Positions 7,835-40,458 are shown, numbered from the stretch's first letter. The stretch is DNA of 64,000 nt from a phage (PZ496580.1); one strand, 5' to 3'. Made by a program: numbers and translations. Notes: generated from the sequence alone by a model not told the origin.

Positions 7835-8636
7835 TCAAAAATTCAACTTCACGACGTTTAATGTCTTCTTGAAGGTCTTTAATCTTCTGTCGATCTTGCA
7901 TGATTTCGTCCATCTTGTCAAGTGCTGCAATGAAATCATCGAAACGTTCAAAGGTTTTACCTTCATTTGCTTCGCTAAATTTAACCATAGTCAGACCGTA
8001 ACGACTACTAAACAGACGTTTCAACTGTCCAACGATCTTAGAATCAGTGGTTATAACTTCCAATTCTTCTACTTCTTGAAAGAATTTTCTATCAGAATCA
8101 ATAAACCAGCTAGTTCCTTTATGGTCTCTATCTCCGGTTGCGCTCATTAGAGTATGGTCTTTACCATCAATTTCAATTACATCAATTTGCCCACATGGAC
8201 TAACATTTTTAACAGTAAAAGGTCTATAATTTATTGCTCGTGCAATAACATAATTAAGGTTAGATACGTTTTCAGCATAATGGCAGAAGTCGGTCATAGC
8301 CTTCGCATCTTTCCAAGTATAAGTTTTACCAACTTCCCATTTCTGGGGAACTTCTTCAACTTCACGAAAGAATTTTCTATCGAATGGACTAAAGAAATAT
8401 GTTGCAGTCCAAATGTCTTTTCCTGTAGCAGTTTTCGCCGTATGATAAACACCGTCTAGCTCTATTGCATTAATCCAACCGTTACCCTCGATCTCGATGA
8501 TGGTAAATGGCTTGTCACCAATAGCTGCACTAATATCGCTGTTAAGTGGAGAAAGAACACCTTCTCCGTTAGTAATAAACTCAGTTTTAGCGTTTTCATC
8601 TTTCCAAGTGTAAGTTTTACCAATTTCCCATTTCAT
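7812..8636 (-). CDS. paralog-family protein, two tandem family-A domains plus coiled-coil tail
   Basis: Internal duplication KWEIGKTYTWKDENAKTEF... and KWEVGKTYTWKDAKAMTDF..., each ending FDRKFF.EVEE. Confidence 0.6.
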   Translation of the reverse strand: MKWEIGKTYTWKDENAKTEFITNGEGVLSPLNSDISAAIGDKPFTIIEIEGNGWINAIELDGVYHTAKTATGKDIWTATYFFSPFDRKFFREVEEVPQKWEVGKTYTWKDAKAMTDFCHYAENVSNLNYVIARAINYRPFTVKNVSPCGQIDVIEIDGKDHTLMSATGDRDHKGTSWFIDSDRKFFQEVEELEVITTDSKIVGQLKRLFSSRYGLTMVKFSEANEGKTFERFDDFIAALDKMDEIMQDRQKIKDLQEDIKRREVEFLIGKERGW

Positions 8637-8648
8637 AATATATTCCCC

Positions 8649-9128
8649 TTAACCGATTTTATCAAGTTCGTTTAATGCTTTCTCTGCTTCCTGTATAGCT
8701 TGCACCCTTTCCGGCATTTTGTCAAGAAAATCTTTCAACTCTTCAAAACTGGAGATATGACGCAAGGCATTAGCACCGATAGCCGCATGTGATTTGCATT
8801 CAAAGCGAATTTTATAATTATCCATCGCCAACTTGAGAAGATCAATTAGTTTAGATTCTTCTGGAATAATAATTTCTTCAAATCTGCTACGGTCGTGATC
8901 CAGAAACCAACAAGATAGACCTACATCGGTTGAACTCATATAAGTTCCATCATGAAGATATACAGATCGCACGTATCCTTTTTTCGCATCAACCGACGCA
9001 ACTTTAAACGGTAATCTCAGATATTTCAAATAATCAACATCATACCATTTAAAAAATTGGTTTGCATCTTTTACATCTTTCCACGCATAGGTCTTACCAG
9101 CTTCCCATTTCATAATATCATCTCTCAT
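8649..9128 (-). CDS. paralog-family protein (family A)
   Basis: N-terminus MKWEAGKTYAWKDVKD...; WFLDHDRSRFEE; C-terminal helical tail. Confidence 0.55.
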   Translation of the reverse strand: MRDDIMKWEAGKTYAWKDVKDANQFFKWYDVDYLKYLRLPFKVASVDAKKGYVRSVYLHDGTYMSSTDVGLSCWFLDHDRSRFEEIIIPEESKLIDLLKLAMDNYKIRFECKSHAAIGANALRHISSFEELKDFLDKMPERVQAIQEAEKALNELDKIG

Positions 9129-9666
9129 TTTTGATACGTGATTCTAATTGGATCATACGGTCGCGCGTTTGCTTGTATTCGCGGATAGCACCGATACGGC
9201 TAGGCATACCATTTAGAACGCTCTTAATACCTTCTAGGGTAGTAATTTTAGCAATGCTATTATGTAACCCCATCTTATCGATTAACTGAATATCGTAGGC
9301 TTCCATAAGCAGACCCAGACGTTCTAAGGTTAAATCTTGTTCTTTATCTTCTTCCTTTTCTTCCGGTTCTGGGATTTCTTTGTTAATAGTAGCTTCGGTA
9401 AAGAAACGACGCTCACCTGCCCAAAACCACACACCGGAAAAGCCAATAGGGGATTCTTTTAACGTCATAGAGTCGTAACCACTGCCGATAATAGTAATTT
9501 CTCTAACATCACCATCATCGTCAATGTCTTCTACCCTAAACGGGCGACCAGCCAACAAGTCCACAATACATCTGTTAATAGACGACGAAAATTTAGTCAG
9601 TTCGGCTTTCGACGCTTCGCATTCAATCTTGTAAGTTTTACCAACTTCCCATTCCATAATAATCAC
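9118..9666 (-). CDS. paralog-family protein (family A)
   Basis: MEWEVGKTYK...GRPFRVEDI...WFWAGERRFFTE; acidic linker and coiled-coil tail. Confidence 0.55.
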   Translation of the reverse strand: MIIMEWEVGKTYKIECEASKAELTKFSSSINRCIVDLLAGRPFRVEDIDDDGDVREITIIGSGYDSMTLKESPIGFSGVWFWAGERRFFTEATINKEIPEPEEKEEDKEQDLTLERLGLLMEAYDIQLIDKMGLHNSIAKITTLEGIKSVLNGMPSRIGAIREYKQTRDRMIQLESRIKNER

Positions 9667-23262: not shown

Positions 23263-23484
23263 TTAGATGACCTCTGCTTCACCATTCAGGAAGAAAGACC
23301 ATGTTTTGTTAGGATAGCGAAGCGCCCATGATTCAGCAGTTTTAACACCAGCTTCGAACAATTGACGGCTGGTCACTTTAGCCATGCCATCTTCGATGGC
23401 AACGTTTTCAATAATCATTGGGTACTTAGCGCCACGCATGAAACCGAAGCCAGCGGAAGATTTGATAATTTTAACAGTTGCCAT
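23263..23484 (-). CDS. small paralog-family protein (family B)
   Basis: ATG at 23484 with GGAGA Shine-Dalgarno, downstream of promoter 23525-23553; MATVKIIKSSAGFGFMRGAKYPMIIEN... Confidence 0.5.
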   Translation of the reverse strand: MATVKIIKSSAGFGFMRGAKYPMIIENVAIEDGMAKVTSRQLFEAGVKTAESWALRYPNKTWSFFLNGEAEVI

Positions 23485-23524
23485 TTTGATTCTCCTAGAA
23501 AGTGTATCTCGTTTCGATGTGTGT

Positions 23525-23553
23525 ATTATGCAATAACACCGGAACGCTGTCAA
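23525..23553 (-). promoter_or_regulatory. sigma70-type early promoter
   Basis: TTGACA(23548-23553)-17-CATAAT(23525-23530). Confidence 0.55.
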
Positions 23554-23571
23554 CACTTTCTAAGAAAAATT

Positions 23572-23856
23572 TTAAATTAATCGAATATAGCCCAGAATTT
23601 CAGCACCTTTAGCCAGTCCTAAAACCTCCCATTCAAGGTCGCCGTAGTCATAATTTGCAACCATCAGTTCACCGTTTTTCATGCAGCAATCATGAGAGAA
23701 AATTTGCCCCGCATAAACTACGATAGTAATAAACTTTCCTGATTCTGGCGGTGTGGAAGACAAAGCGACCATATGACCATTCAGCTTAGTCACCAGTGAT
23801 GGAACAATAAAATTCGGGCTTACCTGAATACCGTTAAATTCGTTTGTGTCTTTCAT
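23572..23856 (-). CDS. hypothetical protein (94 aa)
   Basis: ORF in array. Confidence 0.45.
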   Translation of the reverse strand: MKDTNEFNGIQVSPNFIVPSLVTKLNGHMVALSSTPPESGKFITIVVYAGQIFSHDCCMKNGELMVANYDYGDLEWEVLGLAKGAEILGYIRLI

Positions 23857-24737: not shown

Positions 24738-24766
24738 TTTGATTCTCCTTTGTTGTCGATGTGTGC

Positions 24767-24795
24767 ATTATGCTATACCCTATTCCGGTTGTCAA
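24767..24795 (-). promoter_or_regulatory. sigma70-type early promoter
   Basis: TTGACA(24790-24795)-17-CATAAT(24767-24772). Confidence 0.6.
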
Positions 24796-24800
24796 CACCT

Positions 24801-24832
24801 AAAAACGAAAAAGCCACCCTTTCGGATGGCTT
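24801..24832 (-). terminator. rho-independent terminator (GAAA tetraloop)
   Basis: 7-bp GC stem 24813-24819/24824-24830, loop gaaa on minus RNA, then U-run; after the stop of the 715-aa gene. Confidence 0.6.
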
Positions 24833-36347: not shown

Positions 36348-36674
36348 TTAGAAAGAAACCGTTTTCAAGAAATCCAGATTTTCAGTACCGAATACAGAAA
36401 AGTAGTGTTTTCCTTTTTCGGTTTTAGAGAAAGCGATTGTCTTCTCTACATGGTGACGGAAGCCAGACAGACGATCACCCAGGTCAAGGCGGCAAGCGTA
36501 AGTAGTGCCGTTTTCGAAAGTAACCTCGATTTGAGTTTTGTCATATTCGCTTTCATAGGCTTTTGCTGCCGCGTCCTGTGCTTTACGCTCGAAGTCTTCG
36601 AAGTGGAATACTTCGTTTGCGTTAGCGAATACAGAAGATTCAGAGAAGATAACTTTAACAGATACTGGTTTCAT
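36348..36674 (-). CDS. hypothetical protein (108 aa)
   Basis: ATG at 36674 with Shine-Dalgarno, directly downstream of promoter 36706-36740. Confidence 0.5.
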   Translation of the reverse strand: MKPVSVKVIFSESSVFANANEVFHFEDFERKAQDAAAKAYESEYDKTQIEVTFENGTTYACRLDLGDRLSGFRHHVEKTIAFSKTEKGKHYFSVFGTENLDFLKTVSF

Positions 36675-36705
36675 TTTGATACTCCTTAGTGTGTTTCGTT
36701 TCGAT

Positions 36706-36740
36706 GGGTGTATTATGCTATACACCCTCTCGTATGTCAA
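36706..36740 (-). promoter_or_regulatory. sigma70-type early promoter with hairpin across -10 (PeSL-like)
   Basis: TTGACA(36735-36740)-17-CATAAT(36712-36717); inverted repeat gggtgta/tacaccc. Confidence 0.6.
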
Positions 36741-36747
36741 CAACTTT

Positions 36748-36948
36748 TTAGTCTTTTTTCAAAATTTTTAAGGCAGTATCTACCGCACCTTTCCAACCCT
36801 CCCACATAATGGACATAGCCAAATAGTTAAAAGTAGAATTTGGGCTTGGATTGAATTTGTTATCAATAAACCATTCAACAAATCCTTCGCTCATGCCGTG
36901 GTCTTTAGCCGATTCTCGAACTAATACAAGTTGCTCTTTAATATCCAT
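36748..36948 (-). CDS. hypothetical protein (66 aa)
   Basis: ORF. Confidence 0.4.
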   Translation of the reverse strand: MDIKEQLVLVRESAKDHGMSEGFVEWFIDNKFNPSPNSTFNYLAMSIMWEGWKGAVDTALKILKKD

Positions 36949-37377: not shown

Positions 37378-37406
37378 TTTGGTCCTCCCGTTTCGTTGAT
37401 GGTTGT

Positions 37407-37435
37407 ATTGTAGGGGAGTTATCCTCCCCTGTCAA
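37407..37435 (-). promoter_or_regulatory. sigma70-type early promoter with spacer hairpin (PeSL-like)
   Basis: TTGACA(37430-37435)-17-TACAAT(37407-37412); inverted repeat ggggag/ctcccc. Confidence 0.6.
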
Positions 37436-37443
37436 CACTTTTA

Positions 37444-37629
37444 TCAGAAATATGCAATATAGTTTGCCAGTCCTACAGAGTCATCATTCGGCATTGCTTT
37501 TACTGCCAGTTCAAACCCTGCTTCAACTTTCTGTTTAGCGGATTCTTCGTTATAACCCCAGATAACCAGAATAGCTACTACGTTTTCTTTGCTTACTGCT
37601 TTCAGTGCTTTAGTGATGCGACGTGCCAT
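37444..37629 (-). CDS. hypothetical protein (61 aa)
   Basis: ATG at 37629 downstream of promoter 37676-37704. Confidence 0.4.
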   Translation of the reverse strand: MARRITKALKAVSKENVVAILVIWGYNEESAKQKVEAGFELAVKAMPNDDSVGLANYIAYF

Positions 37630-37675
37630 AATTTGATTCTCCGTTTAAGAAAGTGTGTTTCGTTTCGATGGGTGT

Positions 37676-37704
37676 ATTATGCTATAGGCCGGATCTGGTG
37701 TCAA
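37676..37704 (-). promoter_or_regulatory. sigma70-type early promoter
   Basis: TTGACA(37699-37704)-17-CATAAT(37676-37681). Confidence 0.6.
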
Positions 37705-37728
37705 CAACTTTTTTAAAAAATTTAGGCA

Positions 37729-37755
37729 ATAAAAAAGCCACTCCGAAGAGTGGCT
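37729..37755 (-). terminator. rho-independent terminator (UUCG tetraloop)
   Basis: Perfect 8-bp stem agccactc/gagtggct, loop uucg on minus RNA, then U6. Confidence 0.65.
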
Positions 37756-37756
37756 T

Positions 37757-37900
37757 ATAGGGAAGGTAGCGAATCTTCCTTGTCTCCAACCTGCTAGCGG
37801 CCTAGCAAGTGAATGCTTTAGCGTACCGGATCACCCCATACGCTGTAATAAATGCGGCTAGGTGACGTCCAAATCATTCTAACCGCGCTGTCTTTAGTTC
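37757..37900 (-). ncRNA. structured noncoding region (candidate small RNA or structured 3' UTR)
   Basis: About 145 nt with no ORF, GC-richer than surroundings, three local hairpins; ends at the strong terminator; occupies the slot where T4 carries its tRNA/small-RNA cluster. Confidence 0.3.
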
Positions 37901-37904
37901 ATTA

Positions 37905-38123
37905 TTATTTATATCGCTTTCTCTCGCGACGTTTTTGATCTTCTTCCTTGATAGAGTTAAATGCATCAAAAAGACACATGACACTGATAATAAACATAAC
38001 CGTATTTTCTACGATATCCCACGGCTTCGCATCAGTACAGATCCCCCAAACGGTAAGAAATGCAAATAAGGCAGAAGAGATCACAAGCATGATACTTGCT
38101 AAGATATAAAAAGTCATTTTCAT
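37905..38123 (-). CDS. small membrane protein (72 aa)
   Basis: Hydrophobic N-terminus; basic C-terminus. Confidence 0.4.
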   Translation of the reverse strand: MKMTFYILASIMLVISSALFAFLTVWGICTDAKPWDIVENTVMFIISVMCLFDAFNSIKEEDQKRRERKRYK

Positions 38124-39026: not shown

Positions 39027-39185
39027 TTATTTGCTAATCGCTAAACCTAATCCGAAGAGAGCACCCGACGCTACAGTATACCCGAAAGTTTCAAAGGCAG
39101 TAAAGATATCTAAGCCACCAGCTAACAGAGTTGCAGTAAACAGAGTACCAGCTACGAACATAAAAGTTTTACCGATAAATTTCAT
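39027..39185 (-). CDS. small membrane protein (52 aa)
   Basis: Hand-translated MKFIGKTFMFVAGTLFTATLLAGGLDIFTAFETFGYTVASGALFGLGLAISK; AGGAGA Shine-Dalgarno; downstream of promoter 39211-39245. Confidence 0.35.
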   Translation of the reverse strand: MKFIGKTFMFVAGTLFTATLLAGGLDIFTAFETFGYTVASGALFGLGLAISK

Positions 39186-39210
39186 TTTGATTCTCCTTTC
39201 GTTTGTTTGT

Positions 39211-39245
39211 GGGGGTATCTTACTACCCCCGTTTCATGTTGTCAA
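39211..39245 (-). promoter_or_regulatory. sigma70-type early promoter with hairpin across -10 (PeSL-like)
   Basis: TTGACA(39240-39245)-17-TAAGAT(39217-39222); inverted repeat gggggta/taccccc. Confidence 0.6.
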
Positions 39246-39251
39246 CTGTTT

Positions 39252-39629
39252 TTAAGAATATTTTACTTCGTCTACAATGTCTTTCATGACATTGATTTCC
39301 ATTCCGGTCAGAACACGTTGGAACATGTGCTGAACATACGCTTTCAGGTATTCATTTGACGGCTTGCTATCAAAAGTCTTTTTAGTGTAGTAGTCATCAC
39401 CGAACGCTACTGTAATTACATTTTCGTCGTCATTCCAAGCGATATAAGCAAATTTGCCGTTATCCCAGAAGCGAGCACTAATTGCTACTTTTGTTGAATC
39501 GAATCCTACTTCGCTGTGAGATTCAAGAACTACTTGCGTGCCAGTTTCTTTATGAATGTAGTAGCGGGATACTAAGTCAAAGTTACGGGTGTAGTGACAT
39601 TCGAATTTATCTTTAAACATCATCATCAT
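39252..39629 (-). CDS. hypothetical protein (125 aa)
   Basis: ATG (first of four consecutive Met codons) at 39629 with AGGAGA, downstream of promoter 39667-39695. Confidence 0.5.
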   Translation of the reverse strand: MMMMFKDKFECHYTRNFDLVSRYYIHKETGTQVVLESHSEVGFDSTKVAISARFWDNGKFAYIAWNDDENVITVAFGDDYYTKKTFDSKPSNEYLKAYVQHMFQRVLTGMEINVMKDIVDEVKYS

Positions 39630-39666
39630 TTTGATTCTCCTAAGTGTGTTTCGTTTCGATGTGTGC

Positions 39667-39695
39667 ATTATGCTATAGTCGTTTATGGTTGTCAA
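39667..39695 (-). promoter_or_regulatory. sigma70-type early promoter
   Basis: TTGACA(39690-39695)-17-CATAAT(39667-39672). Confidence 0.6.
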
Positions 39696-39699
39696 CACA

Positions 39700-39732
39700 T
39701 AAAAACAAAAAAACCCCGAAAAATTTTCGGGG
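39700..39732 (-). terminator. rho-independent terminator after gene 57B
   Basis: Stem ccccgaaaa/ttttcgggg followed by long U-run on minus strand. Confidence 0.6.
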
Positions 39733-39739
39733 TATAGAA

Positions 39740-40204
39740 TTACAGTTTGGTCGTCCACTCCAGATCTAGATCTTCGACATACTCATGAGATCGGACAATC
39801 TCTAAATCGAACTCTAGGTCAGTGCCAAATTTACGCGCACCAACATCATAAGAAAGCGTGATATGCGGTACATATTCAGGATAATCCCACGTCGCACCTA
39901 AAGCAGTTCCGATATCGTGTCTGAATTGCATGTAGTCGCTTTCAAATGCCAGCACCAGTGCATTAGTACCGGATTGAGTTTCAAACACTTTCAGGTGGCA
40001 TAGAGAGCCTAAAAACTTTTCACCCTCTTCTGGGATAAACGGAACATAGACACGAGAATATAAGATAGTGCTATGCAGTTTATCACGAGGAACGGCATTA
40101 GGCAGATCGTAGAACTCCTGCAATTTTTCAATGCGGTCTAGTGTATCCTCAGTGAATTTAACCGCCGCATATGTACCTTTAACGGATTCTCGAAACGGGG
40201 TCAT
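39740..40204 (-). CDS. 57B: gp57B-like 2H phosphoesterase (Acb1-type anti-CBASS candidate)
   Basis: Two HxT motifs (KLHSTILYS and VPHITLSYD) at spacing typical of 2H/LigT-fold phosphoesterases; synteny 57B-57A-1 as in T4; ATG at 40204 with GGAGG (track start 40210 is TTG). Confidence 0.7.
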   Translation of the reverse strand: MTPFRESVKGTYAAVKFTEDTLDRIEKLQEFYDLPNAVPRDKLHSTILYSRVYVPFIPEEGEKFLGSLCHLKVFETQSGTNALVLAFESDYMQFRHDIGTALGATWDYPEYVPHITLSYDVGARKFGTDLEFDLEIVRSHEYVEDLDLEWTTKL

Positions 40205-40206
40205 AA

Positions 40207-40458
40207 TCAAGCCTCCGTGATCAGTTCTACTTCCTCTTCTGCTTCTTCGTCTTTAGGGAGAAGTGCTTTTACTTCTTCGACGATAGCATCAAGGGAAACA
40301 GTGCCATTTTCATCTGGCTGAATACCCAGAATGCGTACCAGTTCCATCAATACACGCTCACGATCTTTCAGTTGGCCTTCTAAGAATGCGGCCTTTTCTT
40401 GAGTGTCAAACAGACGGACTTTCAGGACATTAATCATTTGTTCATGCTGATTGGACAT
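40207..40458 (-). CDS. 57A: gp57A-like small coiled-coil chaperone of tail fibre assembly
   Basis: About 83 aa, acidic coiled coil, immediately upstream of 57B and downstream of gene 1 as in T4; ATG at 40458 with AGGAGA. Confidence 0.6.
   Translation of the reverse strand: MSNQHEQMINVLKVRLFDTQEKAAFLEGQLKDRERVLMELVRILGIQPDENGTVSLDAIVEEVKALLPKDEEAEEEVELITEA

Follow-up and report, generated by a model that had tools for sequence, protein, structure and literature searches.

Here, we describe a conserved, structured and non-coding stretch of about 145 nt in an RB49-like coliphage, which probably specifies a functional phage RNA, as judged by comparison of related genomes. It occupies positions 37757 to 37900 of the window, i.e. 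the whole stretch of 64,000 nt of phage DNA (PZ496580.1) that was analyzed, and its RNA sense lies on the minus strand. Our preferred reading, to which we assign a probability of roughly 45%, is a functional structured non-coding RNA from the minus strand that would be made early as well as late and would act in trans. The kind of feature is already known, namely a phage small RNA or a functional 3′ end, while the RNA family itself appears to be new.

The window belongs to Krischvirus, i.e. the RB49/Phi1-like T4-type coliphages, and its nearest relatives are RB49, Phi1 and GEC-3S. A query of 801 bases around the element matched 59 phage records with 95–99% identity, all of them RB49-like coliphages of the genus Krischvirus, including RB49, Phi1, GEC-3S, JSE and ECD7. 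In annotated relatives, all genes of the region and the annotated regulatory signals are located on the minus strand of the window and thus the RNA sense of the element is the reverse complement of the window. The gene order on this strand is gene 1, 57A, 57B, ORF125, ORF124, dmd, ORF122 through ORF118, a gap of 278 nt, and ORF117. In Phi1, this ORF118-ORF117 gap is the largest intergenic gap within the first 65 kb of the genome, and the GC content of the element amounts to 49% as opposed to 40% across the window, in agreement with the original prediction of a sizeable, GC-richer segment free of ORFs. The annotation of GEC-3S places a terminator and an early promoter inside the gap.

The upstream gene, the ORF118 homolog (37905–38123, minus strand), encodes a predicted membrane protein of 72 aa and is the last gene of the early operon; its homologs were found at identities of at least 83% only. 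Around 145 non-coding bases separate it from a 9-bp UUCG terminator (37756–37735). The promoters of the early operon are located near 39695 and 39245, and the element sits directly before the first terminator downstream of both. On the far side follows ORF117 (DUF7421; 37444–37629, minus strand), which is driven by the early promoter of a PeSL cassette (37676–37704, minus strand; TTGACA, 17 nt, CATAAT). This promoter begins 30 nt past the terminator and is also annotated in GEC-3S.

Homologs of ORF117 with 75–79% identity were found in phage JMPW2 as well as in unrelated phage contigs that measure about 50 kb, beside genes for DUF7174 and DUF4884 proteins. In the contigs of about 50 kb the gap upstream of the gene measures 72 nt and does not contain the element. 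A link between the element and ORF117 was rejected for this reason, and ORF117 appears to move among phage groups without the RNA element. At the other end of the region, the 57B homolog (39740–40210, minus strand) has, in related contigs, a precomputed Pfam match to Acb1 (PF23474), a family of anti-CBASS nucleases, and dmd is located 0.7 kb downstream of it. The operon that ends in the element thus sits among genes for counter-defence proteins, namely Dmd and the 57B protein with its Acb1-family match.

No credible ORF exists in 37757–37900 on either strand. The only overlapping ORFs comprise 28–36 aa and either overlap ORF118 or run through the terminator. Furthermore, relatives differ by indels of 1 and 2 nt in the 5′ tail, in the loop of the second hairpin and in the U tract, which excludes a coding function, including that of the ORFs placed there by some pipelines. 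Automated ORF calls over the element in phages FL15 and SSG23 contradict each other, and several automated pipelines evidently put spurious ORFs over it. The non-coding character that had been predicted is therefore confirmed.

The covariance-model and tRNA scans proposed along with the original prediction were carried out. ARAGORN reported no tRNA or tmRNA gene in the whole window, the Rfam tRNA models gave no match even at E-values up to 10, and a T arm with a loop of the GUUCRANYC type is absent from 37729–37900, so that the predicted lack of a tRNA cloverleaf or T-loop motif is borne out. With Rfam 15 at gathering score, no match was obtained in the window or in positions 1–150 kb of Phi1. 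The best sub-threshold scores, obtained in E-value mode, were in the range of 18–23 bits compared with thresholds of 41–100 and represent terminator-driven noise. By these scans, a tRNA, a tmRNA or any known Rfam family is ruled out, and the element would represent a new RNA family that is restricted to the genus and its close metagenomic relatives as sampled.

The minus-strand RNA of the core folds into four hairpins, H1 to H4, followed by the terminator; only three local hairpins had been expected. The RNAalifold consensus consists of the same four hairpins and the terminator as the single-sequence fold. The folding z-score of the core was −2.75, with one of 200 shuffled sequences folding as well, and reached −4.8 for the core together with the terminator; the plus strand scored −3.4. 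After regression on GC content, the core ranked 148th among 6386 windows of 145 nt from the 64-kb window, at about −2 SD. The thermodynamic folding signal is therefore real but moderate.

In detail, the RNA begins with a 5′ tail (37887–37900, GAACUAAAGACAGC) that is unpaired in both the minimum free energy and the consensus folds and shows G/A changes as well as a 1-nt indel in an A run. Hairpin H1 (37854–37886) consists of an 8-bp outer stem, an AA/C internal loop and a 4-bp inner stem with the loop UUGGAC. Eleven of its twelve pairs are invariant, and the remaining one changes from U-A to U-G in phage Brandy, which keeps pairing on the minus-strand RNA only. The AU-rich single-stranded linker that follows (37845–37853, AUUUAUUAC) is unpaired in all folds, varies solely at the position adjoining its last base (A, G or U; alignment A3 column 55), and might serve as a candidate RNase E site. 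Hairpin H2 (37820–37844) has a 7-bp stem with a GG/CC inner pair and a hypervariable apical loop. It is the sole helix with a compensatory change, a G-C pair being replaced by G-U (loci L007 and L008) and by A-U (L003, L011 and L033), and the neighboring pair changes from A-U to G-U. In its apical loop (37828–37837), at least eight variants occur, including length changes of 1–2 nt in a G run, which could reflect slippage in an unconstrained loop or diversifying selection.

Hairpin H3 (37785–37813) contains an invariant 8-bp core (CUUGCUAG/CUAGCAGG) with the loop GCCG and a weak 4-bp extension. A single loop change (GCCG to GUCG) and a single C to A change, which breaks a pair of the weak extension, were observed in it. 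It is connected to H4 by a purine-rich linker (GGUUGGAGACAAGG, center at 37780–37784) with a GGAG and an AAGGA-like motif. This linker is nearly invariant, as only one change (A to G, in L028) occurs among 24 haplotypes, and it may act as a seed or a protein site. Hairpin H4 (37761–37779) has a 5-bp stem (GGAAG/CUUCC) and an invariant 9-nt loop (AUUCGCUAC); one A-U pair is changed to G-U in L007 and L008, again pairing on the minus-strand RNA only.

Standard pairs make up 888 of the 891 pair cells on the minus-strand RNA; for the plus strand, the figure is 786. The four helix changes that affect one side only are all of the wobble type, and since the G-U states correspond to C-A mismatches in the complementary strand, the helix changes fit the minus-strand RNA only. 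Just two changes break pairs, one in the weak extension of H3 and the other beside the hypervariable H2 loop, where the alignment is ambiguous. Variable columns are about three-fold rarer in helices, with 7 of 94 paired compared with 18 of 80 unpaired columns (Fisher p = 0.008; p = 0.03 without the H2 apex). Covariation between homologs, which had been named as a check, gave a divided answer: the changes within helices are indeed wobble or compensatory, but covariation is thin, as 41 of the 47 pairs are invariant and one pair shows a double change across 19 distinct sequences. Taken together, the comparative evidence supports a selected, structured RNA of the gene strand with maintained helices, in line with the predicted structured RNA, with few independent events behind it.

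For the analysis of selection, 31 loci were collected and yielded 24 distinct haplotypes of the region; nucleotide diversity was calculated over 20 full-length haplotypes. It amounts to 0.027 in the element core and to 0.009 in its 3′ half (37813–37757; H3, linker and H4). Third codon positions reach 0.174 in ORF118, 0.105 in ORF119 and 0.050 in ORF117, and the early-promoter spacer 50 nt downstream, used as a nearby proxy for neutral change, reaches 0.124; even the first and second codon positions of ORF118 are at 0.046. The element is thus slower-changing than the silent sites on both sides and than the spacer of the same block. Divergence along the locus is mosaic, the element sharing a low-divergence block with the promoter and ORF117, and recent recombination of this block could explain part of the conservation. 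The contrast to the spacer and to the third positions of ORF117 makes block exchange insufficient as an explanation, and we conclude from these comparisons that the element is probably under measurable purifying selection.

The conservation expected among relatives was found throughout: the element is present in all 59 Krischvirus records carrying the core genes 1, 57A and 57B, with 96.7–99.5% identity, and additionally in close metagenomic relatives. All carriers are closely related, with sequences 94–99.5% alike. As far as sampled, the element thus seems to be universal in the genus and restricted to it and its close metagenomic relatives. Both the window and the complete Phi1 genome contain one copy of the element and no paralog. 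Searches of E. coli genomes gave only generic terminator matches, those of plasmids gave no match to the element, and those of other phages gave matches at the terminator only. A host origin or mimicry was rejected, since the terminator alone matches E. coli and nothing matches in plasmids.

Exact-pattern scans of viral, metagenome and genome collections detected only Krischvirus-like contigs and two 22-mers, in a Streptomyces genome and in a Thermodesulfobacteriota MAG, which were dismissed as chance matches. A gapped H1 pattern occurred in 120 unrelated viral contigs; none of the 80 on which the covariance model was run matched. A scan of the phage genome for antisense targets among Phi1 transcripts gave complementarity of at most 12 nt, which is not above chance. 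Complementarity of the H2 loop (GGGGUGAUCC) to the 3′ end of 16S rRNA was dismissed as well, the loop being the hypervariable part. Literature searches found no transcriptome of a Krischvirus.

The intrinsic terminator (37729–37756, minus strand) consists of the stem AAGCCACUC-UUCG-GAGUGGCUU followed by UUUUUUAUU with its tract of six U, and is preceded by CUAUAA (37762–37757). It was detected by a terminator scan and is annotated as a terminator in GEC-3S; its RB49 counterpart was predicted by TransTerm (PMC1524935 supplement). The strong UUCG terminator of the original prediction was thus recovered, but its stem has 9 rather than 8 pairs, 7 of them in a GC-rich core. The stem is invariant among relatives. 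The loop (37744–37747) is mostly UUCG and is exchanged for CGAA in FL15 (L019), GAAA in L033 and UUAG in L014, the CGAA loop of FL15 being the exact inversion of UUCG. Near-copies of the CUAUAA-plus-UUCG terminator with 87–88% identity follow hoc and gene 32 in Phi1 (100300–100329 and 140863–140896), which suggests a shared terminator type in this genome. The module is thus not specific to the RNA of the element.

Promoter cassettes recur in the window at 23484–23573, 24749–24822, 36671–36760, 37396–37442, 37635–37724, 39182–39264 and 39626–39722. All of them carry the 5′ leader motif CATCGAAACGAAACACAC besides GTTGACA and a −10 box, and a terminator hairpin lies ahead of the cassette at two sites at least, near 37756 and 39733. 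They correspond to the PeSL elements (promoter-early stem-loop) that Arbiol et al. 2010 (PMC2839356) reported from RB49/Phi1. The terminator hairpin and the early promoter immediately downstream of it (37756–37676) form such a cassette, the promoter part of which recurs in the window. In contrast, only one copy exists of the 145-nt element that precedes the hairpin; it lies outside the repeated unit and was therefore rejected as a part of it. A term search of the same paper for ORF117, ORF118, tRNA, small RNA and non-coding returned nothing. The breakpoints of the metagenomic contigs L003, L008, L009, L010 and L011 fall on the PeSL leader motif or on the terminator beside the element. The ends of L010 and L011 at the terminator were considered as evidence of a transcript and rejected, since L010 starts inside the repeated PeSL motif, which fits an assembly break at a repeat and not a transcript end.

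A feature missed by the original prediction is a candidate late promoter box of the T4 type, TATAAATA, at 37913–37906 on the minus strand (37906–37913), which shares its sequence with the ORF118 stop and the two codons ahead of it (TAT AAA TAA). In T4-type phages, the late promoter consensus TATAAATA is located at −13 to −6 (PMC1524935). With the box lying about 6 nt upstream, the predicted start would be near G37900, as in a T4-type late unit. The window contains four such boxes. The other three lie 28–34 nt upstream of ORFs on the same strand and coincide with late promoters of RB49 predicted by Nolan et al. 2006 (PMC1524935 supplement); the box before the element is absent from the late promoters listed there, which counts against it.

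The complete Phi1 genome harbors 16 boxes, 14 of which lie within 80 nt upstream of a gene on the same strand (53, 9, 18, 22, 23, 24, uvsW, 51, 34, 36, ORF247, 31, 57A and rI). The remaining two are located 170 nt upstream of ORF161.1 and before the element. From the composition alone, about as many boxes as these 16 would be expected by chance, but as about 94% of the Phi1 genome is coding, random boxes would mostly fall within genes, and none does. This distribution indicates that non-functional boxes have been purged and that the remaining ones are used. A similar overlap exists 32 nt upstream of gene 22 in Phi1, where the box likewise forms TAT AAA TAA with the stop of gene 21. The box before the element is invariant in 23 of the 24 haplotypes and deleted in one (L015), and we regard it as the best argument for a putative stand-alone RNA gene. 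In the exceptional contig (L015 3325–3400; MAVA01000028.1), ORF118 has two extra A in its A run and a 14-nt deletion, which removes both its stop and the box and gives a new C-terminus, while the element is intact; this, too, speaks against the promoter. The ORF161.1 box (Phi1 96351–96530; L025 46351–46530) is located in a gap of 308 nt after gene 23, past two terminator-like hairpins, and may be a late promoter with a long leader.

On the preferred reading, the element would be transcribed in two ways. Early, it would form the 3′ end of the operon transcribed from the promoters near 39695 and 39245 to the terminator. Late, a discrete RNA of about 170 nt would run from the TATAAATA box, with a start near 37900, to the shared terminator and would accumulate as a stable small RNA. 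Judging by the constraint pattern, the nearly invariant 3′ half would be the active part. In it, H3, the linker GGUUGGAGACAAGG, H4 and an A/U-rich stretch are followed by the terminator and its U tail. The RNA would exert its effect in trans, either by pairing with a host or phage partner or by binding to it.

Some bacterial small RNAs that depend on Hfq or ProQ, such as CpxQ and SroC, are derived from the 3′ ends of mRNAs. Similar to these, the element is located at the 3′ end of an operon, shares the terminator of this operon, carries an A/U-rich stretch immediately ahead of this terminator, and ends in a tail of six U. Moreover, its best conserved part comprises the last 90 nt or so, and a possible internal promoter overlaps the end of the upstream gene. 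This likeness in layout favors a trans-acting RNA, and we infer by analogy that a trans-acting small RNA is the most likely mode. The order at the 3′ end, namely CUAUAA, hairpin and UUUUUUAUU, is that of an Hfq-type end; as the same module also follows hoc and gene 32, it is not diagnostic. Differences exist as well, in that the conserved unpaired segment of the element is purine-rich and resembles a ribosome-binding site instead of being complementary to one, and in that the candidate promoter is a phage late promoter.

A more far-reaching form of this idea, which we consider unlikely, is that the locus would be the first late-promoter-driven small RNA gene in a T4-type lytic phage, and that its invariant purine-rich 3′ half would sequester a host factor in the manner of a decoy or sponge. 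Candidates for the sequestered partner could be Hfq, CsrA, ribosomal protein S1, RegB or a host small RNA, and the linker ACAAGGAAG resembles the CsrA SELEX consensus. As an alternative to the decoy, the RNA could modify RNA polymerase in analogy to the put RNA of HK022, which would then read through the many PeSL terminators downstream. If true, the phage would, in either case, use this RNA at late times of infection to reprogram the expression of its own or of host genes.

The main rival of the trans-acting RNA is a purely cis-acting role in stability or processing, without a trans function or a separate RNA, which we regard as doubtful. The hairpins of a 3′ UTR would then shield the early ORF125-ORF118 transcript from 3′ exonucleases or set its lifetime by processing, with the AU-rich linker as a possible site for RNase E, the unpaired GGAG for RegB and the 12-bp helices for RNase III. 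In favor of such a role, no other terminator lies between the 39695 and 39245 promoters and the one that follows the element at the end of the early operon, and the contig L015 keeps the element without the TATAAATA box. Furthermore, T4 RegB is reported to cleave GGAG with an unpaired GGA (PMC3014915), and Phi1 encodes RegB and has this motif in the invariant unpaired linker. However, one strong terminator hairpin is normally enough and other operon ends in this genome have only that; the constraint on loops and linker (0.009 in the 3′ half) exceeds the needs of simple protection, and the position of the box argues for an independent transcript. The same box could alternatively make the element a late leader of ORF117 and the genes beyond, the hairpins and the terminator controlling read-through as an attenuator or in a riboswitch-like manner. 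The layout of promoter box, structured leader, terminator and gene would suit this, as would the 170-nt leader behind the ORF161.1 box of Phi1, but folding did not reveal the mutually exclusive antiterminator and terminator pairings of an attenuator, which was thus rejected: without the 3′ arm of the terminator, the 5′ arm forms few weak pairs and H1–H4 remain unchanged, the folds being modular. Together with the missing match to any riboswitch family in Rfam and the early promoter that ORF117 has of its own 30 nt past the terminator, this renders leader control very unlikely.

The element might also be a decaying remnant of a lost gene, tRNA or mobile element, devoid of any present function and with a conserved look that is due to recent block exchange. 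The close relationship of all carriers (94–99.5% identity), the mosaic divergence with a low-divergence block shared with ORF117 and the weak covariation are compatible with this. On the other hand, the promoter spacer of the same block, at a distance of 50 nt, has a diversity of 0.124 versus 0.027, and the third positions of ORF117 show roughly double the diversity of the element. Loss or truncation of the element was seen in none of the carriers, though the region is, according to the PeSL paper, prone to gene gain and loss (PMC2839356). Substitutions avoid helices and, where they occur in them, preserve pairing, and searches gave no similarity of the element to any tRNA, gene or repeat. We therefore judge a remnant to be quite unlikely. 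Highly improbable is a role at the DNA level, for example as an origin of replication, as a signal for recombination or packaging, or as a cruciform bound by a protein. The hairpins are inverted repeats in the DNA too, and the plus strand also folds well (z = −3.4). Nevertheless, G-U pairs occur in five helices and the one-sided changes are without exception of the wobble type, which gives mismatches in the complementary strand and is irrelevant to duplex DNA, and neither iterons nor repeats were found.

Among known systems, the RNAs rnaC (species 1, 139 nt) and rnaD (species 2, 119 nt) of T4 are comparable as small structured non-coding RNAs. Like the element, they are found at the 3′ end of an early-strand transcription unit, in a variable region that begins a few kb past 57A/57B. 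The predicted correspondence in position is accurate: in T4, 57A-57B is followed within 1.4–3.5 kb by the tRNA cluster with rnaD/rnaC, and in Phi1 the element is located about 2 kb downstream. The order is 57B, ipI, trna.2-4, tRNAs, rnaD and rnaC in T4 and 57B, ORF125 through ORF118 and the element in Phi1. This shared location downstream of 57B concerns the position only and thus says nothing on homology. A blastn-short comparison of the element with the T4 tRNA/rnaC/rnaD region gave chance matches of at most 10 nt, and the covariance model of the element (R1) had no hit on the T4 region (L023) at E-values up to 10. Homology to rnaC or rnaD was rejected on these grounds, and the parallel is an analogy only. 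In addition, rnaC has a tRNA-like T arm (CCGGGUUCGAAUCCCGG) and lies within a tRNA cluster, whereas the element has no T loop and, unlike rnaC and rnaD, ends in its own intrinsic terminator. RB49-like phages are devoid of tRNA genes (PMC1524935).

RNA I of ColE1 (RF00106) likewise consists of a series of stem-loops ending in a terminator and was the top sub-threshold Rfam match of the element. However, its score of 22.8 bits, with an E-value of 0.08 on 801 bases, is far below the gathering score of 47. Generic hairpins and the terminator account for the alignment, and the context of plasmid replication is missing from the element.

A review of 2010 states that no trans-acting regulatory RNA or riboswitch had been functionally characterized in T4, calls the roles of RNA C and D unknown, and points to the genomes of T4 relatives as a possible source of candidates (PMC3014915). 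The locus described here is such a candidate: it is small and well delimited, present in all 59 Krischvirus genomes of the collection and equipped with a candidate promoter and a terminator. As RB49-like phages are used or collected for phage therapy, an unannotated conserved RNA gene would represent a gap in their annotation.

Elsewhere in the window, four direct repeats of about 69 nt were observed at 8282–9662, with 67–75% identity to the reference copy and a spacing of 291–544 nt. Probably, these are the conserved ends of genes that form a small paralogous family.
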